Positions 10,877 to 33,131 of a DNA stretch of 64,000 bases are shown here, in pieces. The notes under the pieces are model-generated. The model made no database searches. It was not told the origin of the DNA and saw only the letters and a program-made list of their open reading frames with translations. Origin of the DNA: Escherichia phage PECP20; sequence record OQ873415.1; one strand, 5' to 3'. A program made the position numbers and the translations under genes. Within the stretch, counting starts at the first letter, position 1. Every line of letters begins with the position of its first letter.

Positions 10877-11826
10877 TATAACACCTCAATGGCATTTCGT
10901 AAACCGTCCGCTTTCGCATTCAGAGTTTTTAACGATTTAGTCTGTTCTTTAATCTGGGCTTCGACTTCTTTCAGACGAGATTTGAGATATTCACGTTCTT
11001 CGCTCAAGTTGTCAACTTTTTCTACTTTAGGTTCTTTAATAGTCTTAAGTTTATACTCGTTAGGGTTCTTCAGCTTAATTCGGGTGCGAGAACTGTATAA
11101 CATTGAACCGTTATCTTCGGATTCGTCGAACGTTTCAACAACATCCATAGTCTCTAACAATGTAATAAGTTTATAAGACAATGAACGAACGGTTTTATTA
11201 TGCTTATTAATTTCTTCAGCTTTCATGGTACCGAGATTACGTGAGTAGTAATAAGGAACCTGGATATCAATTGATAATGATGCGTTACCATTACCGGTCG
11301 GTTTGAATACTGCAGTAACCCAATCTTTAACATGAACTTTATTTGTACGACAATCACCGCCCGTGAATAATTTACGAGAATGTTTAAAAAGCATATTCAC
11401 TTGGTTATTGAATTCACAAGCAAATTTATCAGCGAATTTAGTTTCAGGAATGGTAGATAACCAATCAGCCAAATGAGTCTTTTTAACATCATTAACAATA
11501 GTGAATTCAACCAAATCAGTTTTAGATGTCACAGATTTAATAAAGCTCGGTTTCATAAAGTTTTTAATGTTATCGCGAGCTACAGTAGAAGATAATAAAC
11601 GAGAACGTTTGAACCATTGAAGCAGTGTCCCTAATGAATGAGAATACGCATTCTGAGTATCTTTACAGATATGATTTTCTTGACCTGTGTATGTACCAAA
11701 ATCGCGAAGAATACCACTTACTACATCTCGGTGTGGAACATCAAATCCTAGTGCACCAACAGCGCGCTGGGCACGAACGTTAGCGATAAGACCGGCAAAG
11801 TATTCAATGTAATGTGAACGTGTCAT
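10876..11826 (-). CDS. Hypothetical protein (316 aa) with C-terminal coiled coil
   Basis: ORF track; own promoter; no recognisable catalytic motif. Confidence 0.55.
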   Translation of the reverse strand: MTRSHYIEYFAGLIANVRAQRAVGALGFDVPHRDVVSGILRDFGTYTGQENHICKDTQNAYSHSLGTLLQWFKRSRLLSSTVARDNIKNFMKPSFIKSVTSKTDLVEFTIVNDVKKTHLADWLSTIPETKFADKFACEFNNQVNMLFKHSRKLFTGGDCRTNKVHVKDWVTAVFKPTGNGNASLSIDIQVPYYYSRNLGTMKAEEINKHNKTVRSLSYKLITLLETMDVVETFDESEDNGSMLYSSRTRIKLKNPNEYKLKTIKEPKVEKVDNLSEEREYLKSRLKEVEAQIKEQTKSLKTLNAKADGLRNAIEVL

Positions 11827-13961: not shown

Positions 13962-14489
13962 TTATGCGTGAACCGTCTTTAAACGTTCTTCAAATTTCCG
14001 AAGAGTACTAATACGTTCTGCTTTCTGTTTTGTATAGTTTGCAATACGTTCTGAAGTGAGAGCGTATCGTTCGTTTACTGTTTCTTTCATGAAGTCAGGG
14101 ATTTCACGAGAAGCTTTAATTTCATCAAACTTGTCGAGTACTGCCTGGTCTTCAGCGATTAAATTTTCATACATCTCGATATCTTTCTTGATAAACTCGA
14201 TATCTTCCTGGGTTACTTTGGATAAACGAGACGCTTTATCCTTTTTGTACTGCTCGTTAGTTTCACGAGACCAGAATAATGTACGTTTTTTGTTAGTGTT
14301 TTTGTAGACTTCCACAATTCCAACTGAATCGATGATAACAATCCAATTCCAGCGAGATTTGAAAATCTGACCTCCGTCCACGGTAATCTCGTTATCATAA
14401 GCAACGTCATTAAAGAACTTGCTTTGTGCTTCAGATTTAAATTTACCGTCGTTATAATTTACCAGGTTGAAAATATCTTTAGCGTTCAT
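13962..14489 (-). CDS. Hypothetical protein (175 aa)
   Basis: ORF track; GGAGG ribosome-binding site; early promoter upstream. Confidence 0.55.
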   Translation of the reverse strand: MNAKDIFNLVNYNDGKFKSEAQSKFFNDVAYDNEITVDGGQIFKSRWNWIVIIDSVGIVEVYKNTNKKRTLFWSRETNEQYKKDKASRLSKVTQEDIEFIKKDIEMYENLIAEDQAVLDKFDEIKASREIPDFMKETVNERYALTSERIANYTKQKAERISTLRKFEERLKTVHA

Positions 14490-14516
14490 GTTTTACCTCC
14501 AGTAGTTGATAGGTCT

Positions 14517-14545
14517 ATAATAACATAACCATAGACCTTGTAAAC
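14517..14545 (-). promoter_or_regulatory. T4-type early promoter (GTTTACA ... TATTAT) with AGGTCTAT/ATAGACCT inverted repeat in the spacer
   Basis: Minus-strand GTTGTTTACA, 17 nt, TATTAT. Confidence 0.5.
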
Positions 14546-14547
14546 AA

Positions 14548-14835
14548 CTAAAAGAAACTTTTTTCAGTATTTTTTCCACTGAACCAAACAGACTTCGGGA
14601 TTTTTTGTAATTTTTCAGACTTAAGTTTCTCTTCCTGTTCTTTCTTATATACTCCCTTGTCGTACTGGAGCATCTCTAGGGCATTCTTTTGCAAACGATC
14701 TAAGGTAATTAAGGCTTTAGTTTTTCCTTTCAAGGAAGAGTCCTGGCGAACTTCCTCGCTATATTGCATCGTAGAACTAACCATACGATGTGCATACAGT
14801 TCGACTGCGGCTTTGATTTTTTGCATAAAATCCAT
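14548..14835 (-). CDS. Hypothetical protein (95 aa)
   Basis: ORF track. Confidence 0.45.
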   Translation of the reverse strand: MDFMQKIKAAVELYAHRMVSSTMQYSEEVRQDSSLKGKTKALITLDRLQKNALEMLQYDKGVYKKEQEEKLKSEKLQKIPKSVWFSGKNTEKSFF

Positions 14836-14973
14836 AACATATCCTCTTTGATTTGTACATCATTATTTTTAAATATTTCTATGCCCTCAGTAGGTTCCTG
14901 GTGTCCTTCTTTGAGGTAAGCCATATGGTTATTAATCTTTGTGGCTTTTGTTACCTCAGGACTTCCTGTAAGC

Positions 14974-15954
14974 TTATTTCAGTAAAGTTACTTCAGAGAT
15001 TTCCTCCCAACCATCTTTATCGGTTGAAATAAAATCTGCTACATAAAGAGCCGTACGTAATGATACATTGCGAAGACGAGATACATTAGCCTTCATCCAG
15101 GACAATGCTTTATACGTTTCAGCATCAGTCAAGCCACGTTTCTGCATCATATCAGTAGATAATATTACATCTTCAACTCGAACCATAATCTCTTCATTAG
15201 AGTGTACTCCAAGGTCGAGATACACTGAACGAGATACTAAAGCTTGAAGGTGTGGAGCAAGTTTCGAACCCCGTTCTAACTCTTTATCGATATCAACGTT
15301 TGTAATGAAAACGATAGTACCTTCAAACTCAAATTCTTTATCAATACCCTTATCCTCGAGATAAGATGACGCAGTGCTCCAACAAACTTTGCGTTTATCT
15401 CCGGTATCTAATGCTGCTTTAAGAAGGTTCAGGATGTCCATATCTGAGAATACGTCAACGTCATCGATTAAGAGAACGCTGTCTTCATCACGGTTGAGCC
15501 AAAGTTGTTCGTAAAGGCCAATACCGGAGATTTTACCATTAATGCTTTTGTATTTGATGAAACCATTATCATTAGCATTATTAAGTGCTTTATCCAGAGA
15601 ATACGTCTTACCAATACCAGCTGCACCTGAAATAATGAGTGAACGAATTTTGCCATCAATAATGCCATTCGTCATCATGTTCATTACTTTAAAGCGTTTG
15701 TTGATACGAGTTTTCATATCTTCAGTGCTTTCAACAACTGCAACTGGTGACGTCTCAACTCCTTCCATTACGATGTCTGATTTGAAGACCCATACTCCAC
15801 GTTCAGAACCATCAATCATAACGAAAATTTTACCATCACCTAAGTGGGAACATTCAGGATTAAGCTTTGCCGGGAACCATGTCTTTGTGGCAACATAAGA
15901 ACCAGAGATTTCGTTATTACGATAGATACCTTTTTTGATTTGAACGTTGAACAT
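14974..15954 (-). CDS. P-loop NTPase, AAA-like (Walker A GAAGIGKT, Walker B LLIDDVD)
   Basis: Motifs read in the translation; start at internal ATG with GGAG ribosome-binding site. Confidence 0.6.
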   Translation of the reverse strand: MFNVQIKKGIYRNNEISGSYVATKTWFPAKLNPECSHLGDGKIFVMIDGSERGVWVFKSDIVMEGVETSPVAVVESTEDMKTRINKRFKVMNMMTNGIIDGKIRSLIISGAAGIGKTYSLDKALNNANDNGFIKYKSINGKISGIGLYEQLWLNRDEDSVLLIDDVDVFSDMDILNLLKAALDTGDKRKVCWSTASSYLEDKGIDKEFEFEGTIVFITNVDIDKELERGSKLAPHLQALVSRSVYLDLGVHSNEEIMVRVEDVILSTDMMQKRGLTDAETYKALSWMKANVSRLRNVSLRTALYVADFISTDKDGWEEISEVTLLK

Positions 15955-15992
15955 TTTATTCTCCAATTTACTCATTTCGTTTCGATAGGTCT

Positions 15993-16020
15993 ATAGTATC
16001 ATATCCTAAAAGCATGTACA
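15993..16020 (-). promoter_or_regulatory. T4-type early promoter candidate (TGTACA ... TACTAT); also carries a TGCTTTTA MotA-box-like sequence
   Basis: Minus-strand read. Confidence 0.4.
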
Positions 16021-25785: not shown

Positions 25786-26067
25786 CTATTTTTCTGAAGC
25801 GCCTGAAATATATTTTTCAAGACGTTGTTTCATCAGCGAGCCGTTCTTAGCGATTTCTTCTGGTTTATCGCACATACGCAACAAGGCTTCAAGCTTAGCG
25901 ATATCGCTGGTACGTTCAAATTTGCGAGTATCTATCTTACTAGCAAGTTCAGAAATACGTGCTAATAGACTTTCAGCTTCAACCAAAGCTGCACCTAGCT
26001 TAGTTGCAAATGTGTCAGTAGCTTCGTTAAGAATAGATTCTGATAAAAATTCACTATATGTTTTCAT
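25786..26067 (-). CDS. Internal-protein-like head protein with capsid-targeting N-terminus ([10 protein letters not shown]...)
   Basis: Capsid-targeting consensus; start ATG overlaps the e stop (ATGA). Confidence 0.55.
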
Positions 26068-26552
26068 ATATACGCTTTCCAAGTTCCTGTTTTAAATGTT
26101 GAGATTACGCGTTTCGCGCGATTAGGTGTCTGACGATACCATTTAGATTGAGCTAGATTTACTGCCGCTTCATCCCAACGTTTCTGTTTAAGCATACGAA
26201 GAGAATTAGTAAAACCGGCGACTCCTGCTACACCCATTTGGAAGACCATATTGACCAATGCACACCGACGAACTGCATCTAAAGAATCATATACCGGTTT
26301 AAGTTTAGCATTACCCAAGATTCCGCGAACGGCTTTATCGACGTCTTCATTAAATAGCTTTTCAGCCTCATCAAGGGTAATTGTACCGTTGCATTTACGA
26401 CCGATCATTCTGTCAAGTTCAGCTTTAGCTACGGCTAAAGACTGGTTCTTTGTTACCAAGTGGCCTATGCCAATCGTCCAAAAGCCTTCAGTGTCTTTGT
26501 ATAAAGTCAGTCTAAGACCTTCGTCATTACGAAGCATTTCAAATATATTCAT
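26064..26552 (-). CDS. e: Lysozyme (endolysin) e
   Basis: [32 protein letters not shown]... roughly 80% identical to T4 lysozyme by eye. Confidence 0.95.
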
Positions 26553-27045: not shown

Positions 27046-27271
27046 ATCGGTCCCATGATTTGGCCATCAATTCGGACATAAATTCTTCAATGCGCGTTTC
27101 TTTAGATGGACTTTCACTATTAGAGACCGCAAGTTTGTAATCTGCAATAGGACAGAACATATCAAGGTCCATATTAAGATCGTCTTTGATTTTTTCTTCT
27201 GACACATCTTTATCATACGTGTACAGATAACTATCGCATGATTCTGATTTAATGTAAATTGCTATACTCAT
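27035..27271 (-). CDS. Hypothetical acidic protein (~78 aa)
   Basis: ORF track; internal ATG with AGGAAT ribosome-binding site. Confidence 0.4.
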   Translation of the reverse strand: MSIAIYIKSESCDSYLYTYDKDVSEEKIKDDLNMDLDMFCPIADYKLAVSNSESPSKETRIEEFMSELMAKSWDRYDE

Positions 27272-27759
27272 CTCAAATTCCTGCATTCGGTAATAAAACG
27301 TTCAACTTCGTTATTCTTGGCCTTTATCTTGTCTTTACGTTCCTGTAAACTACTTTTAACAAGATTAATAATGATGGCGGCGGTACCGCCGCCAATGATG
27401 CCACCAACAACACTTACGATACTAGATGCTAATAAGATAGCAATAATATCAACAAAACCGAAAGAACTCACCTTAGTACTGAAAAACCATACCGACGGTA
27501 CAAATATAATCCATCCTGTTATCCATTGGCACTTATTGAAAAACTTTTCAAGCTCAGCTTGAGTTGTTCGTATTACTTCATCGATAGGTTGATATCCATT
27601 AATGTATCTGTTCACGATAATACCTGCTGGCTGGTCGATTTTAAATTCTTGGCAAATACGTTTCACTAAGTAGGATGGACATCCTGTCCAATCCACTGAA
27701 TAGTACGAAATACCTTCGTTGCCATCGTCTATATTAGACCAATATGTTTTGTTAATCAT
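27268..27759 (-). CDS. Membrane protein, C-terminal ...ERFITECRNLR (FIxECR-tail family member 1)
   Basis: Transmembrane segments plus conserved C-terminal motif shared with ORFs at 28447, 31113, 31451 and 31815. Confidence 0.5.
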   Translation of the reverse strand: MINKTYWSNIDDGNEGISYYSVDWTGCPSYLVKRICQEFKIDQPAGIIVNRYINGYQPIDEVIRTTQAELEKFFNKCQWITGWIIFVPSVWFFSTKVSSFGFVDIIAILLASSIVSVVGGIIGGGTAAIIINLVKSSLQERKDKIKAKNNEVERFITECRNLR

Positions 27760-28445
27760 TACCAGCCTTCCATAGGGAATTCCAGATAAACTTGAGCATT
27801 GACACGAATTTCATTGGTAATCTTTTTAACTCGGTCTGTATTACGAGATACACGTCCGAACCAACGCCATCCATTACTAATTGCACGAGAACCAGTGTGC
27901 CATGTTTGCCAATCAAACTGAAGAAGAGTACGGTCCGGAGCTTCCCATTTCTCTAGTTCACCTTTTTCAATTTTTTCGAGGACTTCTTTGTGCCACTGGC
28001 GATAGATAAGTTCGCCATCAGGAATCTGACTGAACTCTGCAGTTCCTGTTGCAAAATGAGTAGGACACACATCAGCGTTAACAAGACCAAGAATATGTTC
28101 AGACAAATAGCGAGGATTGTCATAGTCAGGTTGTCCTGCAGTAATAAAATGTTGACCAACCGGAATATCCGGGCGTGGTACGTCATCATGGTGATAACCA
28201 GGAATAGCAGGATACCAACCAGGCATCAGCATATGGACTCGTGAATCAAATACTACATCTGAGTCTTTCCAATCGTCAGGGAGATTTTGGATAAAGCTAC
28301 GAGTAATTGGACCGCCGTTATCAAAAGCAAAATTCAAATCGCAATTAAAGAACATAGGCTCGTTTTTAATCTGGTCATTTTTAATCGCATGAGCAAAACC
28401 ACCTACTGCACGAGCTTGACTATTAAACACTTTAGAACTATTCAT
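27759..28445 (-). CDS. Hypothetical protein (228 aa)
   Basis: ORF track. Confidence 0.5.
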   Translation of the reverse strand: MNSSKVFNSQARAVGGFAHAIKNDQIKNEPMFFNCDLNFAFDNGGPITRSFIQNLPDDWKDSDVVFDSRVHMLMPGWYPAIPGYHHDDVPRPDIPVGQHFITAGQPDYDNPRYLSEHILGLVNADVCPTHFATGTAEFSQIPDGELIYRQWHKEVLEKIEKGELEKWEAPDRTLLQFDWQTWHTGSRAISNGWRWFGRVSRNTDRVKKITNEIRVNAQVYLEFPMEGW

Positions 28446-28446
28446 A

Positions 28447-28752
28447 TTATTTTCCTCGACATTCTTTAATGAAATTTTCTAGATTGGTAGATTCAATAGC
28501 TTTTTTACGAGCTTCTGCGTGTTCTTCTTCAGACAATTTACATTTATAATTGACCCAGACGTTATGGTCGAAACTAGTCGTGGCATATAATAACAATGCT
28601 CCAACGAATAGCAAAAACGGCGATAAGAATACAAAACCAGGAACACCATCCATACTGTAAGCCTTTTGTAATACTGCAACAGAAAGAGCTGCGTAAAAAA
28701 GTGATACAAATATTGTTAAAAGACCAATTCGGTTGGTTTCGCCTAATTTCAT
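28447..28752 (-). CDS. Membrane protein, C-terminal ...ENFIKECRGK (FIxECR-tail family member 2)
   Basis: Two transmembrane helices plus conserved tail. Confidence 0.5.
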   Translation of the reverse strand: MKLGETNRIGLLTIFVSLFYAALSVAVLQKAYSMDGVPGFVFLSPFLLFVGALLLYATTSFDHNVWVNYKCKLSEEEHAEARKKAIESTNLENFIKECRGK

Positions 28753-28780
28753 AATATTCTCCTCATGTTTTAATAGGACT

Positions 28781-28809
28781 ACTATAACATAGTCCTATCA
28801 GTTTGTACA
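28781..28809 (-). promoter_or_regulatory. T4-type early promoter (TGTACA, 17 nt, TATAGT) with inverted repeat ATAGGACTA/TAGTCCTAT around the -10
   Basis: Minus-strand read. Confidence 0.5.
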
Positions 28810-28810
28810 C

Positions 28811-29011
28811 TTATTTTGACATTTCTTCGATGTCACGACGATACCCATCACGAACTTCACGAAGAGCTTCAAGGCCACACATAGGCTCGATACCAGTAAT
28901 GTGAACTTGATTAATCTGATACTCTACATCTTCTAACTGAGCGAAAACATAACGACGTTCTGCTGCACAACCAGGTTTAGCTTTACCGAAACGTTTATTC
29001 AAAGTAGTCAT
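28811..29011 (-). CDS. Hypothetical protein (~66 aa)
   Basis: ORF track, internal ATG. Confidence 0.4.
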   Translation of the reverse strand: MTTLNKRFGKAKPGCAAERRYVFAQLEDVEYQINQVHITGIEPMCGLEALREVRDGYRRDIEEMSK

Positions 29012-29049
29012 TTTTATATCTCCATTCACTCATTTGTTTTGATAGGTCT

Positions 29050-29079
29050 ATAGTATCAACAACTACAGACCTTGTAAAC
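29050..29079 (-). promoter_or_regulatory. T4-type early promoter (GTTTAC ... TACTAT) with AGGTCT/AGACCT inverted repeat
   Basis: Minus-strand read. Confidence 0.45.
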
Positions 29080-29091
29080 TGTTTTGTGAAA

Positions 29092-30048
29092 TTATTTGAA
29101 AGGTTTTACCATATGAAAGTTTTGTTTGAAACGCTTGACGTAATCGTCGTGTCCTAAGCTTTGGTACATACTTACTACTTTGTTATAATTTTCCCAAGCG
29201 AACTCACGGAACCATCCTGATGTGATTGATGTACAGACCTTTTCAAGGGCCATCATAAAACTATCACGTGGATGGATTTCAAAGTTATTAGGAATCTGAG
29301 AACGTTCTAACGCTAGTACACATGATTCTTCGTATACGCCGGCCAATTTGACCATTTCTGGTAATGATTCGAACTTCTCGCGTGAGGTCATGACTTCAGA
29401 ACCATCTTTCATATAAAATGTATACGCTGGACGGTCTGTTAGTGCAATGGCTTCATGAATAGTATCATGGTCATATGTATAGATGTCATCTTTAAAGAAC
29501 GCACTTTTAGAAGTGTCAAGAACTGGGTGAGCATAATTCAAGGTTTCTTTCTGGCGTTTCAGCATAATTTCAGTAAGTTCATCGTTCAGTGTAACACCTT
29601 TACCACGAAGATACTGAATATGGTTCATAGTCTTTAAAAAGAATGGATTATTTTTCTTGAAACGATGAGACATCTTAATTGCAAGACATATCTCAGGAGT
29701 TGCCCAGTAAAACCCGTTCAAACGGTCTTTAGTCAAATTTTTCTTGGCGTATTTTAAAAGGTCATAAGAAGACGTGAAATCTTCAGGAGTGAGTTCACCG
29801 ACTAGTTCGCGAACGTTAGTGATAGCCGGAACGATGTATGCTTCAAAATGAGTTTCGCGTCCATTATGGAAGCATTTGAAAACTTGGACATCAGGGTTAT
29901 CTTGGTGAACATATACACCCATCATTTGATTTTTGAATGCATTCCAAGAACCTTGGTCCGCAATAAAGTCCCAATCACTATTTTTAATAGCGCTAGAATC
30001 AATAAGACCGTGATAGTGAAGTGCACGAGAACCAATAACTAACATCAT
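29092..30048 (-). CDS. Hypothetical protein (318 aa); weak nucleotidyltransferase-like N-terminal motif (IGSRALHYHG...SDWDF)
   Basis: GS ... DxD spacing is 17 residues, longer than canonical, so the fold call is tentative. Confidence 0.5.
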   Translation of the reverse strand: MMLVIGSRALHYHGLIDSSAIKNSDWDFIADQGSWNAFKNQMMGVYVHQDNPDVQVFKCFHNGRETHFEAYIVPAITNVRELVGELTPEDFTSSYDLLKYAKKNLTKDRLNGFYWATPEICLAIKMSHRFKKNNPFFLKTMNHIQYLRGKGVTLNDELTEIMLKRQKETLNYAHPVLDTSKSAFFKDDIYTYDHDTIHEAIALTDRPAYTFYMKDGSEVMTSREKFESLPEMVKLAGVYEESCVLALERSQIPNNFEIHPRDSFMMALEKVCTSITSGWFREFAWENYNKVVSMYQSLGHDDYVKRFKQNFHMVKPFK

Positions 30049-30076
30049 AATATTTTCCTCGGATTAATTCATTAAC

Positions 30077-30328
30077 TTAAATTTCACGACATGCGATATT
30101 ATATTCATCCCAGAGGTCATCATGTGAAGCCTCTACCAATGGAACGATTGTACCGTTTATGTCTTCATTATAAGGGCAAATTGTACAGTGCGCATCTTCG
30201 AATCGGATGCCTTTGTGTTCAGATTTTTTATAACGCATATCGAATATCTTTGCAAACTTTTCACGAGTAATGGTTTTACCAACCACTTTGGTTCCGATAC
30301 TTTCGTAATAAATCATTGTGGACTCCAT
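30077..30328 (-). CDS. Hypothetical protein (83 aa)
   Basis: ORF track. Confidence 0.45.
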   Translation of the reverse strand: MESTMIYYESIGTKVVGKTITREKFAKIFDMRYKKSEHKGIRFEDAHCTICPYNEDINGTIVPLVEASHDDLWDEYNIACREI

Positions 30329-30344
30329 TTGTTTTGATAGGACT

Positions 30345-30374
30345 ACTATAACATAGCCCTATCTTGTTGTAAAC
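30345..30374 (-). promoter_or_regulatory. T4-type early promoter (GTTTAC ... TATAGT) with inverted repeat ATAGGGCTA/TAGTCCTAT
   Basis: Minus-strand read. Confidence 0.5.
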
Positions 30375-30378
30375 TGTT

Positions 30379-30576
30379 TTAGCAAGAATAACTAGATGAT
30401 ACCCAGCCTTGAACAGTGATACTATTGTGGGATAATGAGATCGCGTCCTGGAGATTCAGACCTGCGTTATCTTCAATCCATAATGTAACTTCTTCGCGTT
30501 CTTCTGCTGCAATTTGGAACAGGTTTTCCAGAGCAGCTACTGCCGTACGTACAGCACAATCTAATTCACGAGACAT
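30379..30576 (-). CDS. Small acidic protein, C-terminal ...GWVSSSYSC (SSSxxC-tail family member 1)
   Basis: C-terminal motif shared with the two genes upstream. Confidence 0.5.
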   Translation of the reverse strand: MSRELDCAVRTAVAALENLFQIAAEEREEVTLWIEDNAGLNLQDAISLSHNSITVQGWVSSSYSC

Positions 30577-30585
30577 ATTGTTTCC

Positions 30586-30813
30586 TTAGCAAGACATAGA
30601 GGAAGAGAACCAGAAACCTTTGCCTTCCGGAATTCCATAATCGTTACGGATCCAGCCATATTCATCATATTCTGAACTGGTCGCCGGAATATATCGGTTA
30701 AGTCCTTCAGCATACACATGAAAATACTCGCCGGTTTTATCAGCTAATTGTTGGCCTTCACAGATTAGTGCTCGAATTTGGTCTTCAATTTCTTTAACGG
30801 TTTTAGTGGTCAT
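30586..30813 (-). CDS. Small acidic protein, C-terminal ...GFWFSSSMSC (SSSxxC-tail family member 2)
   Basis: Conserved tail; junction TGCTAAGGAAACAATATG. Confidence 0.5.
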   Translation of the reverse strand: MTTKTVKEIEDQIRALICEGQQLADKTGEYFHVYAEGLNRYIPATSSEYDEYGWIRNDYGIPEGKGFWFSSSMSC

Positions 30814-30822
30814 TTTATTTCC

Positions 30823-31116
30823 TTAACATATTTGAGAAGAGGAGATCCATACACCGGAAGTAACGATACCATTTTCGTCAACTTCACCGCCATAGTTTTC
30901 AATTTCATCGCGCATCCAGCGACTACATTCATAACCAACAGGATAGTAAGTACGACCTGAACCATATTCACCTACATCAAATGAAACACCATACTTATCT
31001 GCGATAATAGTAGCTTCATTCTCGATATGGTCTTGAGCACGAAGAAGTTTGCTGATTGCTTCTTCTGCAGATTTAGCGTCATTGTATTCAGGGATTACGA
31101 TTTCAATTTTACTCAT
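30823..31116 (-). CDS. Small acidic protein, C-terminal ...GVWISSSQIC (SSSxxC-tail family member 3)
   Basis: Conserved tail; junction TGTTAAGGAAATAAAATG. Confidence 0.5.
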   Translation of the reverse strand: MSKIEIVIPEYNDAKSAEEAISKLLRAQDHIENEATIIADKYGVSFDVGEYGSGRTYYPVGYECSRWMRDEIENYGGEVDENGIVTSGVWISSSQIC

Positions 31117-31472
31117 TTTCTACATTCCTTAATAAAGTTTTCGATTGTTTCATTTTCACGTTTAGCTAGGAGTTCATTATAACTAATCATTTGAGAAGCG
31201 TAAACCTTTTTATTTTTCTTGTTGTGGTTTATAAAATCGTAGTAAAAATAGACTACAGTACAAAATGATGCGATGGATGCAAAGGCTTGGGTATACCGTA
31301 AGTCCTGCCATTGGTCTGTGAATCCACCAGTGTTCCCTATAAATCCTAACACAACGCCGTCAATAAGAAATCCAACTAATCCAAAGGCAAATCCCATGCC
31401 AATACTCATAATAAAAATTAGAATGTTCTCACCAAGAGAAGGCCATACGGTTAAGAGTTGAGGCTTTTGCAT
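31113..31472 (-). CDS. Membrane protein, C-terminal ...ENFIKECRK (FIxECR-tail family member 3)
   Basis: Transmembrane segments plus conserved tail; stop overlaps the next start. Confidence 0.5.
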   Translation of the reverse strand: MQKPQLLTVWPSLGENILIFIMSIGMGFAFGLVGFLIDGVVLGFIGNTGGFTDQWQDLRYTQAFASIASFCTVVYFYYDFINHNKKNKKVYASQMISYNELLAKRENETIENFIKECRK

Positions 31473-31846
31473 CTTATTTCCTTAACGAATTCCATAGCTT
31501 CTTCATATTCATACTTTTTAACAGCTTCATCATACTGAGCTTGGGCTTTTGCGCACTGAACTTTCCATTCTCTTAATCGGGCTCTGTGATGACGGCCTTG
31601 GTGCCAATATCCTACCCAATTAATAGGCATTAATAAAAACGGTACAATAAGTGGTGCGACGAACATTAATGAAAATGCTGCATCAGACGATATAACTTCA
31701 CTAGAATCTAAAACAGCTCCTATAATCATAAAGATTAAAAATGCTAAAGCTAAAATAGGACCAAATAATACTTCATACGGGATTAATTTACGTTTGTATT
31801 CGTAGGCCCAGGGCTTACTTGGCATGTATAGGGTTGGCTTTGACAT
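31451..31846 (-). CDS. Membrane protein, C-terminal ...EFVKEIRCKSLNS (FIxECR-like tail, family member 4)
   Basis: Transmembrane segments; related tail. Confidence 0.45.
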   Translation of the reverse strand: MSKPTLYMPSKPWAYEYKRKLIPYEVLFGPILALAFLIFMIIGAVLDSSEVISSDAAFSLMFVAPLIVPFLLMPINWVGYWHQGRHHRARLREWKVQCAKAQAQYDEAVKKYEYEEAMEFVKEIRCKSLNS

Positions 31847-32438
31847 ATTCTCTACATTCCATAATAAATTGCTCAAGGATTAAATTGTTAGTGAAATTAG
31901 GACTAACAACCATAGTTTCATAAAGCGCATCAATAGCACTTAAAGCATCAACTCTTTTAAGCAAAGGCTTGCCTTCATACATAGTTTCAGAATCGATGAT
32001 TAACGTAAAGTAATATTTTTTATTATCGACTAGAACTTCTGTATCGATATAAAACATATTAGACCTCAGAAGCTTATCTCTAAAACCATAATAATCTTCA
32101 GAGCGTTCGCTGATATATTCCCATTCAGTGTTTAAACAACAAACAGACCACGTAGGAGCAACGAAATCAGTGAATCTAATATCATGGTCTGCAACTAGTT
32201 TAGCAATAGCTCCGATATCATGAATCATAATACCTGGGGCTAATAAAGATTTTCTGCTATGGCTAGCCGTTTTCTCGGTGGTCTCATAAGAAGACGACCA
32301 GTACCATTTACGTCCGGTTGCAACATATCGTAATGAATCAACTAAAGACGTAGGTGGATTTACCTTATCTCGGAACTCTTCGAACATTGAGTCAATATCA
32401 TTATTTTGGTTTCGCATGTTAGCTCCTTTATTATCCAA
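31815..32438 (-). CDS. Hypothetical protein (207 aa) with internal ...EQFIMECREYVK motif
   Basis: ORF track; start uncertain. Confidence 0.45.
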   Translation of the reverse strand: MDNKGANMRNQNNDIDSMFEEFRDKVNPPTSLVDSLRYVATGRKWYWSSSYETTEKTASHSRKSLLAPGIMIHDIGAIAKLVADHDIRFTDFVAPTWSVCCLNTEWEYISERSEDYYGFRDKLLRSNMFYIDTEVLVDNKKYYFTLIIDSETMYEGKPLLKRVDALSAIDALYETMVVSPNFTNNLILEQFIMECREYVKANPIHAK

Positions 32439-32466
32439 AAGGAGGACCGGAGTCCTCCGTATTATT

Positions 32467-33060
32467 TTATTTCAAAGAGTTAATATATTCTTGTACATCA
32501 GCAGAAGTGGTTTCGACACCAGCTGGAGTGCCATTGAACGTTTCAACACGAGTCAGAGTGTCTTCGATATCAACCTTAGTCAGTGCAGCGATTTCAATTA
32601 CATCGTCAGCGGTAGAGATACCAAGGGCATTGGCTGCTCGAGTTTCACGAATGTATTCGAGTTTGATTGCCAGGTTCTGACGAGCATCGTCAAGTTCAAC
32701 CACCTTACGAGCAATTTCAATTCGCATAGCGGCATACCCGTCAGCTTTTGTATTAAGTTGTTCGGCAGTTCGACGATACAGAAGACCAAGCTTAGCATGC
32801 ATGGTAACATCTTGTCCTTCAGCCAGGAGTTTACGAATTTCACGTTCCTTAGAAGCGGCTTGCTTGTTCTTTTCATTAACAAGTTCGCGAATACGTTTTT
32901 CTTCATTAATAGATTTAACAGAAGCCGTTTTTAGTTCTTTGATTTGGGTAATCAACTTATCTGCAGCTGCGTTATACTGTTCTTCGACAGTCAGATTTTT
33001 AGCCATGGCAGTACCCAGTTTAGTGCGAATGAATTCAACAAGTTTCTTCAGAGTGTTCAT
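32467..33060 (-). CDS. Coiled-coil protein (197 aa)
   Basis: Long heptad-like charged helices; no catalytic motif. Confidence 0.5.
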
Positions 33061-33102: not shown

Positions 33103-33131
33103 ATTATACTCTGCTCTCAAGAGTTTGTAAA
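33103..33131 (-). promoter_or_regulatory. T4-type early promoter (-35 TTTACA, 17 nt, -10 TATAAT) with GAGAGC/GCTCTC inverted repeat around the -10
   Basis: Second copy of the ~50-nt element at 3615-3670. Confidence 0.55.

Follow-up and report, generated by a model that had tools for sequence, protein, structure and literature searches.

A short C-terminal peptide shared by small proteins of T4-like phages follows a PspA-like gene and carries an overlaid ribosome-binding site

We examined the e.2–e.6 gene cluster in a 64-kb stretch of the genome of Escherichia phage PECP20 (OQ873415.1; "the window," to whose whole length all coordinates refer). Five proteins encoded in this cluster, e.2, RB69ORF133c, e.3, e.4, and e.5, share a short peptide at or near the C-terminus, which we call the tail. 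Very probably, the tail is a selected peptide over which a ribosome-binding site is written. The genes that carry it lie downstream of e.6, which is a divergent and previously unrecognized member of the PspA/IM30/Vipp1 family (ESCRT-III superfamily). We propose that the tail is a handle by which its carriers dock to e.6, and we give this statement as a whole, selected peptide and docking together, a probability of about 0.45. The region shares 98.6% identity with Escherichia phage LH01 and ~95–98% with many further phages. The two near-identical relatives that we inspected belong to Mosigvirus (RB69-like T-even phages), and the gene names are from the annotation notes of near-identical Mosigvirus genomes (SA79RD). 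The e.2–e.6 proteins have been known so far as "predicted membrane" or "conserved hypothetical" proteins.

A preliminary description of this DNA had quoted five C-termini, and by translation all of them are correct: ERFITECRNLR (e.2), ENFIKECRGK (RB69ORF133c), ENFIKECRK (e.3), EFVKEIRCKSLNS (e.4), and EQFIMECREYVKANPIHAK (e.5), each read up to the stop codon. In a six-frame translation of the 64 kb, the pattern E.F[IV].E[CI]R has just four matches, which lie in e.2, RB69ORF133c, e.3, and e.5, and all of these are 1–11 residues from the stop codon. Chance would give practically none: in 200 dinucleotide-preserving shuffles, the mean number of matches was 0.01 and the maximum was 1. In e.4, the tail is a weaker variant, EFVKEIR, which is shorter by one residue.

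We then compared syntenic loci from T4, other Tequatrovirus and Mosigvirus contigs, two further Tevenvirinae groups, Klebsiella phage Marfa, Citrobacter phage Merlin, Aeromonas phages avDM5 and Aszh-1, RB43, and Serratia phage WSPA (some loci are given below by number, as in L010). Across 44 distinct junctions, F is present in 42 and C in 37, and the I/V/L and R/K positions are also fixed. The conserved core is [F/W/I]-[I/V/L]-x-x-[C/A/S/I]-[R/K], with a hydrophobic residue, usually L or I, at -3 and a few mostly basic residues after the core. The Glu residues that flank the core, which were part of the motif as first described, are conserved in Tequatrovirus and Mosigvirus only. The number of tail carriers varies from 1 to 7 between phages. 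In the six-frame translation of T4, F[IV]..C[RK] is found only in the open reading frames (ORFs) of e.3, e.5, and the 3' fragment of e.2; with a position-weight matrix of the tail, the T4 proteins e.5, e.3, and e.4 score 24.9, 19.2, and 15.4, and the next best score is 10.7.

The tail is predicted to form a short, moderately amphipathic helix: its hydrophobic moment is 0.46, versus 0.33 for shuffled tails, and 39 of 45 tails are above the median of their own shuffles. The Cys is replaced by Ala in Ackermannviridae and WSPA and by Ile, Ser, Val, or Met in the e.4 lineage. These substitutions disfavor thiol or metal chemistry and argue for a small or hydrophobic helix-packing position. The tail strings were found in no paper in the literature that we searched, and there is no prior description there of the shared tail or of its dual coding.

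Several observations argue that the tail is conserved as a peptide rather than as an RNA or DNA module. One of the two readings first offered, a junction or ribosome-binding-site module, would call for conservation at the nucleotide level, which the tail does not show. In the 44 distinct junction DNAs (from 12 loci, namely the window and 11 of the syntenic loci), the Phe is encoded by TTT in 30 cases and by TTC in 12, the Cys by TGT in 21 and by TGC in 16, and all six Arg codons are in use. The identical ENFIKECR peptides of e.3 and RB69ORF133c have four synonymous differences at the DNA level. Because synonymous codons vary this freely, we consider the tail to be a peptide motif. It is also kept where no gene starts nearby: in avDM5, the tail FVDYCR is 35 nucleotides (nt) from the nearest candidate ORF start and 68 nt from the next annotated gene, and in RB43, the tail FIHSCK is 25 codons before the stop codon and 71 nt from the next start. 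Furthermore, in T4 the motif is confined to e.2, e.3, and e.5, although every T4 gene needs a ribosome-binding site. These cases point to a peptide motif as well, and they contradict a module that is general at junctions and limited to places where a start needs it.

It might still be argued that the codons are kept as the initiation region of the downstream gene (a Shine-Dalgarno sequence with an AU-rich enhancer or a coupling structure) and that the peptide is a by-product. In most Tevenvirinae junctions, the Arg codon and the ATG are indeed no more than 22 nt apart, and both the free positions and the choice of Arg codon follow the spacing to the next ATG. But the amino acids are fixed while synonymous sites vary, the Shine-Dalgarno sequence shifts among different tail codons, and the motif, which is kept without a nearby start, is missing from all other T4 gene junctions. 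Nor are the five junction RNAs in the window more structured than shuffled sequences (z from -1.0 to +1.4). This RNA-level explanation is already contradicted by the present data, and we consider it very unlikely.

The overlaid Shine-Dalgarno sequence itself is real. As the preliminary description had noted, the next ATG is close to the tail, at most 10 nt from the Arg codon at all five junctions. We find that the tail supplies the Shine-Dalgarno sequence of the next gene in e.2, RB69ORF133c, e.3, and e.4. The more specific claim, that the Lys-Glu codons provide an AAGGAA, applies to e.3 and e.4 only: AAG GAA at 31125–31130 precedes the start after e.3, and AAG GAA at 31478–31483, within the e.4 tail, serves the start of e.3. 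At the latter junction, the next ATG overlaps the Arg codon by one base. After e.2, the site is AGGAA (27278–27282), from the Arg codon AGG plus AAT. After RB69ORF133c, the site is GAGGA from CGA GGA (28453–28457), and the Lys-Glu codons there, AAA GAA, are not a Shine-Dalgarno sequence. The site after e.5 is weak, with only GGAA upstream of the e.4 ATG.

Across the compared junctions, the place of the site varies with the gap between the tail and the next ATG. If the gap is 4 nt or less, the free residues are K-E, E-E, K-G, or M-E (AAGGAA, GAGGAA, AAAGGA, or ATGGAG) in 16 of 17 junctions. At gaps of at least 7 nt, E or G stands at the second free position in only 7 of 27 junctions, versus 16 of 17 at 4 nt or less (Fisher, 8e-6; these spacing counts are not phylogenetically independent, and the pattern recurs in several genera), and K-E is spelled AAA GAA, not AAG GAA. 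At gaps of 5–16 nt, the Arg/Lys codon is AGG, AGA, CGA, or AAG in 15 of 16 junctions and forms a site with the codon that follows, while at gaps above 16 nt it is CGT, CGC, or CGG in 7 of 11. The Shine-Dalgarno sequence is thus a second code over the selected peptide and is placed on the two free positions if the ATG is within 4 nt and on the Arg codon if it is 5–16 nt away. On our reading, the ribosome-binding site is written over the tail because the genes are packed end to end.

We identified relatives of e.6 in 1,101 phage records (by tblastn). Public records describe e.6 as "hypothetical" or, spuriously, as "host specificity protein." The AlphaFold2 model of e.6 (pLDDT of 77, from an alignment of 27 sequences) shows a helix at the N-terminus together with a long helical hairpin, and the ESCRT-III-type fold (N-terminal amphipathic helix and alpha1-alpha2/3 hairpin) is present in it. 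When we compared this model to the PDB with Foldseek, the top eight hits were all Vipp1 (best E = 5.7e-4), followed by CdvB2 and PspA. An exhaustive profile search of 1.8 billion proteins gave an e.6 family of 45 cluster representatives, which are compact, ~200 amino acids (aa) long, and from phages only. The profile of this family finds Vipp1/PspA chains first in the PDB (E from 2e-4 to 4e-3), collinear from residue 1. Five of the 31 full-length representatives match Pfam's PspA_IM30 (PF04012) as single sequences, with a best E of 8.9e-10; the family member P0063 scores 35.1 bits against the PF04012 gathering cut-off of 33.9. The members above this cut-off are Ackermannviridae proteins (one locus is from Klebsiella phage May), and the T4-like e.6 profile finds the Ackermannviridae members over their full length, with E values from 3e-20 to 4e-16. 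Overall, e.6 is like the PF04012 family in its ~200-aa length, its N-terminal amphipathic helix, and its long hairpin, and unlike it in being strongly divergent. Less favorable to the assignment, the e.6 protein of the window itself has no match to PF04012 at E values up to 1, and hhalign of the close e.6 alignment against an approximate sequence of E. coli PspA was negative. An Ackermannviridae-type PspA-like query found no relative in 185,579 bacterial and archaeal species genomes. In the searched literature, no paper links PspA, Vipp1, or IM30 with T4-like phages or places e.6 in the PspA family, and the e.x gene names are not discussed in the text.

The tail follows this PspA-like gene across two phage families. 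We used 17 non-redundant loci from Straboviridae and Ackermannviridae, with e.6 relatives that range from 100% to ~20% identity, and considered an ORF to bear the motif if it had [FWILVM][IVL]xx[CA][RK] within its last 30 residues. By this criterion, the ORF directly downstream of the e.6 relative bears the motif in 16 of the 17 loci, which are not phylogenetically independent, against a background of 9 of 483 ORFs there. The exception is Aszh-1, which has FINYCI. The most widely kept carrier is e.5, which is always the first gene after e.6; in the window, e.4, e.3, RB69ORF133c, and e.2 are within 5.2 kb downstream of e.6. In Ackermannviridae, the neighborhood is otherwise different, yet the one to four ORFs after the PspA-like gene all carry the tail, in the form I-[IV]-x-x-A-R-[GSRK]-[RK]. 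They encode a ~180-aa protein with an N-terminal transmembrane (TM) anchor and then up to three single-TM proteins of 51–62 aa.

The preliminary description had offered, as one possibility, a paralogous family of membrane proteins. Its count of at least four TM proteins among the five holds: hydropathy predicts TM helices in all of the carriers but e.5. (Counted automatically, e.2, RB69ORF133c, and e.4 have two helices each and e.3 has one, versus two segments in e.3 if the sequence is read by eye.) A single family, however, is not what the alignments show. With full alignments, hhalign pairs the families at the tail only, over 11–17 columns, with probabilities of 48–94% for 9 of the 10 pairs and 8% for e.4 and e.5. 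Once the tails were trimmed, the probability for e.2 and RB69ORF133c dropped from 89% (over 58 columns) to 1%, and the values were 3.5% for e.2 and e.3, 0.1% for RB69ORF133c and e.3, and at most 0.3% for all pairs with e.5. In contrast, e.3 and e.4 still matched at 92% (E = 8e-7, 40 columns around TM2). A match of RB69ORF133c to phrog_2203, the PHROG of e.2, at E = 1e-4 was also lost upon trimming, the five families stayed separate in jackhmmer, and tail-trimmed BLASTP gave fragmentary clusters only, with even the positional orthologues of e.5 split.

For most pairs, then, similarity is confined to the tail and the bodies are unrelated, which is the outcome that had been named in advance as speaking against a family. 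Because only e.3 and e.4 stay similar without the tail, we see one paralogue pair rather than a five-member membrane family, and part of the original idea survives in that pair. To judge from these comparisons, the carriers have mostly unrelated bodies, e.3 and e.4 are one genuine tandem pair, and the long and short forms of e.2 in relatives are perhaps further pairs. Besides e.5, soluble carriers are found among the relatives: Marfa and Merlin encode 95-aa proteins with the tail, and L010–L012 encode a protein of 109 aa with FLEYCR. Searches for homologues of e.3 and e.5 returned near-identical sequences only, and for this reason the AlphaFold model of e.5 (pLDDT of 36) is unusable. Comparisons by hhalign among the e.5-like proteins of T4-like phages, RB43/WSPA, and Ackermannviridae were not significant (two of the three best local alignments align the tails), so the orthology of e.5-like proteins across these groups is based on position only.

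In the membrane carriers, the tail is ~29–50 residues past the last TM helix. Counting K and R by eye, we found that the termini are K/R-rich and that the loops between helices are short and K/R-poor. Given this pattern and the positive-inside rule, both termini are probably inside, which would put the tail on the cytoplasmic side, in the same compartment as e.5 and e.6.

In our proposal, the tail serves all of its carriers as a docking handle by which they would bind one shared partner, and the best candidate for this partner is e.6 itself. The PspA-like e.6 would be recruited to the inner membrane, or regulated there, via the tails of soluble e.5 and of a lineage-specific number of small inner-membrane proteins (here e.4, e.3, RB69ORF133c, and e.2). 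We propose docking to e.6 because PspA homologues are typically accompanied by small TM partners (PMC11237479) and because the C-terminal domain of PspC, which is cytoplasmic, binds PspA (PMC5596341). A Psp-like module in which the tail helix links e.5 and the membrane carriers to e.6 is suggested by gene neighborhood only, and we hold it tentatively, at somewhat less than even odds. More broadly, T4-like (Straboviridae) and Vi01-like (Ackermannviridae) phages might carry their own Psp-like system for membrane maintenance or remodeling, made of e.6 and of a variable set of adaptors, unlike in sequence, that are all recognized via the [F/I]-[I/V]-x-x-[C/A]-[R/K] helix; this is a possibility that we put forward with considerable doubt. 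Such a system would hold or reshape the host's inner membrane, for instance during lysis inhibition or superinfection.

Besides the non-independence of the loci counted above, several points weigh against docking to e.6. At E values up to 1, none of the five carriers matches a PspB, PspC, or LiaI family in Pfam or NCBIfam. We found no membrane-anchored carrier in the loci examined from Aeromonas phages, RB43, and WSPA, so recruitment to the membrane cannot be the universal role. The adjacency of the genes could mean co-regulation or common descent, not contact. Finally, knocking down e.2–e.6 in T4 left fitness unchanged under laboratory conditions, so there is no phenotype in support of any function, and a 2025 T4 data set lists the function of these genes as unknown (PMC11879866, supplement).

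The tail could also bind another target: the carriers themselves (by hetero-oligomerization via the charged helix and the tail), the surface of the membrane, or a conserved host protein of Enterobacteria and Aeromonas. The tail is an amphipathic helix, a long charged stretch (probably a coiled coil) precedes it in e.2, RB69ORF133c, e.3, and e.4, and several carriers are co-expressed from one cluster, all of which would suit such a target; also, no measurement here separates the candidate partners. Yet neither a host partner nor lipid binding predicts tight adjacency to a PspA-like gene in two families of phages, and it is not typical of membrane-targeting helices to have acidic residues at -2/-1 and at the second free position. 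We view another target as unlikely, though worth keeping in mind. Common descent on its own, with the carriers as tandem duplicates whose bodies have diverged and the tail as the slowest remnant, without a shared partner, strikes us as rather improbable. It fits the clustering and shared orientation of the genes, the 92% match of e.3 and e.4 without their tails, the weak similarity over TM segments and tail between adjacent long and short e.2-like forms (L035 9354/9739, with E = 1.5e-10 in a tiny database, and L041 14715/15122), and the three tandem e.4-like copies in L035. But selection is needed for a remnant to stay conserved, so common descent does not account for the persistence of F, I/V, C/A, and R all the way from T4-like phages to Ackermannviridae when all else has been lost. 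The soluble carriers (e.5 and the 95-aa and 109-aa proteins) also share nothing else with the membrane carriers. Common descent and docking are compatible, not exclusive.

Two readings that involve the junction fare worse. If the repeated 3' sequence were a short homology for the gain, loss, and shuffling of cassettes in the hyperplastic e-tRNA region, then the variable number of carriers would make sense, as would the e.4 gene of closely related phages, which is present in L010/L019 and absent from L011/L012 (~11130–11530) as precisely one gene, bounded by the start codons that follow the e.5 tail and the e.4 tail. We rejected the tail as a recombination site: although this indel is gene-exact, its flanks share almost no DNA (scattered bases only), DNA identity between tails is low, and the conservation lies at the amino acid level. 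The N-termini of e.3 have diverged on both sides of the indel, so there was no recent clean deletion, and separate repeats of the region, described below, are much better candidates. We give recombination at the tail little credence. The other reading is a nascent-peptide arrest signal, in the manner of SecM or MifM, that couples membrane insertion to translation of the next gene. The conserved peptide does lie over the next start, some 29–50 residues past the last TM helix, and insertion force on known arrest peptides acts at about this distance. However, the tail is also found on the soluble carriers, of which the oldest carrier of all, e.5, retains it without a nearby gene start, there is no likeness to known arrest motifs, and a stalled ribosome would cover the next start instead of exposing it. 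Arrest seems to us scarcely credible.

If the carriers do dock to e.6, the closest parallel would be with PspA and its small partners (PspB-PspC in E. coli and Yersinia, LiaI-LiaH in B. subtilis, and PspM in mycobacteria), where, as here, a PspA/IM30 gene is accompanied by genes for small inner-membrane proteins. The partner sets of PspA vary by lineage (PMC11237479), as the number of carriers does in phages. The carriers differ from PspA's partners in that they match none of the PspB, PspC, or LiaI families, in that several are unrelated and some are soluble, and in that they share one tail; the phage system also differs from bacterial Psp in being encoded by phages and lacking a PspF-type regulator. 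C-terminal docking motifs are known from other systems: the MIM motifs of ESCRT-III proteins bind MIT domains, and T4's gp43, gp33, and gp55 have clamp-binding tails. There, likewise, one short helical C-terminal peptide is found on unrelated proteins that use one partner. The phage tail has no sequence similarity to MIM motifs or to the T4 clamp-binding motifs, and the partner here is only proposed.

We also considered whether the tail could be a capsid-targeting sequence. Internal proteins of T4 have the capsid-targeting sequence MKTYQEFIAE, and gp21 cleaves after I/L-x-E. This sequence has E-F-I-x-E in common with the tails of the window, but it is N-terminal and the tails are C-terminal. 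Against the tail matrix, it ranks 928th of 57,694 T4 peptides, which is no outlier, and the Glu that gp21 needs for cleavage is replaced in other genera by S, N, G, Y, H, M, L, or D. On these three grounds (the wrong end, the non-conserved Glu, and the matrix rank), we rejected the tail as a capsid-targeting or gp21 site. Genes for internal proteins with capsid-targeting N-termini (one of them MKTYQEFITE) are present in the window at ~25277 and ~26060–26082 on the minus strand, beside gene e.

The features are listed in Table 1. Between 26 and 34 kb, every gene is on the minus strand, and genes for tRNA-Arg and tRNA-Met are at 35.4–35.6 kb. In the annotation of SA79RD, e.6 is directly upstream of e.5, and nudE and e are downstream of e.2. 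Among the loci compared, RB69ORF133c was seen in Mosigvirus only. The stop codon of e.3 and the start of the next gene overlap as ATGA, and the residues of e.5 that follow its tail overlap the start of e.4, which some annotations place seven codons later. The preliminary description had e.5 begin at 32438, which is a TTG; in relatives, the annotated start is the ATG. A DUF-type entry for e.5 may already exist: Pfam family PF26876 is listed for its relatives in a protein database.

Table 1. Tail carriers, tail cores, and e.6 in the window.
Feature	Coordinates	Strand	Description
e.2 homologue	27268..27759	-	163 aa; soluble N-terminal domain, two predicted TM helices, charged linker, tail ending ...VERFITECRNLR
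Tail core F-I-T-E-C-R of e.2	27280..27297	-	next ATG at 27271
RB69ORF133c homologue	28447..28752	-	101 aa; two TM helices, charged linker, tail ending ...LENFIKECRGK
Tail core F-I-K-E-C-R of RB69ORF133c	28456..28473	-	next ATG at 28445
e.3 homologue	31113..31472	-	119 aa; membrane protein, tail ending ...IENFIKECRK
Tail core F-I-K-E-C-R of e.3	31119..31136	-	next ATG at 31116
e.4 homologue	31451..31846	-	131 aa; two TM helices, long charged helix, variant tail ending ...AMEFVKEIRCKSLNS, with Ile replacing Cys
Tail core F-V-K-E-I-R of e.4	31472..31489	-	e.3 ATG (31472) overlaps the Arg-Cys codons
e.5 homologue	31815..32417	-	200 aa; no predicted TM helix; tail ...LILEQFIMECR, then EYVKANPIHAK to the stop codon
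Tail core F-I-M-E-C-R of e.5	31851..31868	-	e.4 ATG 4 nt past the Arg codon
e.6 homologue	32467..33060	-	197 aa; N-terminal amphipathic helix, long helical hairpin

e.2 matches phrog_2203 ("membrane protein") with E = 4e-55 and is homologous to the e.2 of Tequatrovirus along its entire length. We dropped the idea of a domain swap in e.2, as the ORFs of L010 and L012 simply begin at an upstream ATG and are homologous over their full length. In the T4 reference (L003, NC_000866, 67490–67960), e.2 is truncated to 102 aa; in another Tequatrovirus, it is intact, with 162 aa. Relative to the intact form, the lesion consists of a 1-nt deletion in a run of A and a 1-nt insertion ~75 nt later, and the original frame returns, with the tail NNFITECRKLK and a stop codon, just before nudE. 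Either the truncation is genuine and T4 e.2 is a pseudogene, or the sequence contains an old error.

e.6 has its own strong match to an early-type promoter (33103–33131, minus strand; TTTACA, 17 nt, TATAAT; 11 of 12), and a GC-rich hairpin with a T-run lies between e.6 and e.5 (32441–32458, minus strand). With its own promoter and this hairpin, e.6 may differ from the tail carriers in expression level. The N-terminus of e.6 has LVEFIRTKL, which we considered as a possible likeness of the tail. Scored against the tail matrix one residue out of register, with Phe off the Phe column, it ranks at ~14,000–16,000 of 57,694; in the proper register, by eye, Lys and Leu stand at the places of Cys/Ala and Arg/Lys in the tail. 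An 83-aa ORF (30077–30328, minus strand) ends in the tail-like WDEYNIACREI, yet its homologues end in DSARWDI or DYVAEI, and we excluded it as a carrier because of these differing C-termini. Two larger conserved proteins are encoded among the tail carriers, both on the minus strand: one of 228 aa (27759–28445), with a near-invariant C-terminus (...RVSRNTDRVKKITNEIRVNAQVYLEFPMEGW), His/Asp-rich motifs, and no Pfam match, and one of 318 aa (29092–30048) with DUF7277 and DUF7275. The e.2–e.6 interval of T4 has no gene of similar size.

The region has other repeats. Arbiol, Comeau, and Krisch reportedly described promoter/stem-loop cassettes (PeSLs) in the hyperplastic regions of T4-type phages and proposed that these mediate modular shuffling. 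Like the tail, PeSLs are repeated at the gene boundaries of the region, but they are intergenic DNA repeats, whereas the tail is coding and conserved as a peptide. We found three PeSL-like intergenic elements on the minus strand (~28773–28809, 29050–29078, and 30337–30373), each with an early-type promoter (T(G/T)TACA, 17 nt, TATAGT or TACTAT) that overlaps the stem-loop ATAGGACTACTATAACATAG(T/C)CCTAT. Others have annotated these elements as terminators.

A second family of C-terminal tails, W-[VFI]-S-S-S-x-x-C, is found on three small soluble proteins encoded in tandem (30379–30576, 30586–30813, and 30823–31116, minus strand), which end in WVSSSYSC, WFSSSMSC, and WISSSQIC. There are two to five copies in the L010/L012 group, L035, Marfa, Merlin, avDM5, WSPA, and Aszh-1, and none was found in the T4, L007, L036, and RB43 loci that we examined. 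The N-terminal part of e.5 (~32280–32310, minus strand) holds RKWYWSSSYETT (RNYYWGSSYET in T4), which resembles this second tail, and a relationship between the two is possible.

Whatever the function of the tail, this locus is a clean natural case of dual coding, in which a selected peptide and a ribosome-binding site are written on the same nucleotides. The shift of the Shine-Dalgarno sequence with spacing makes it useful for gene-finding and for the recoding of phage genomes. e.2–e.6 are "conserved hypothetical" genes of the best-studied phage. If the docking proposal is true, then these genes would have a testable function, as a phage-encoded PspA/Vipp1 system with modular adaptors, and the tail would offer a six-residue handle to mutate or to use as bait. 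Bacterial viruses would then join the carriers of ESCRT-III-superfamily proteins.

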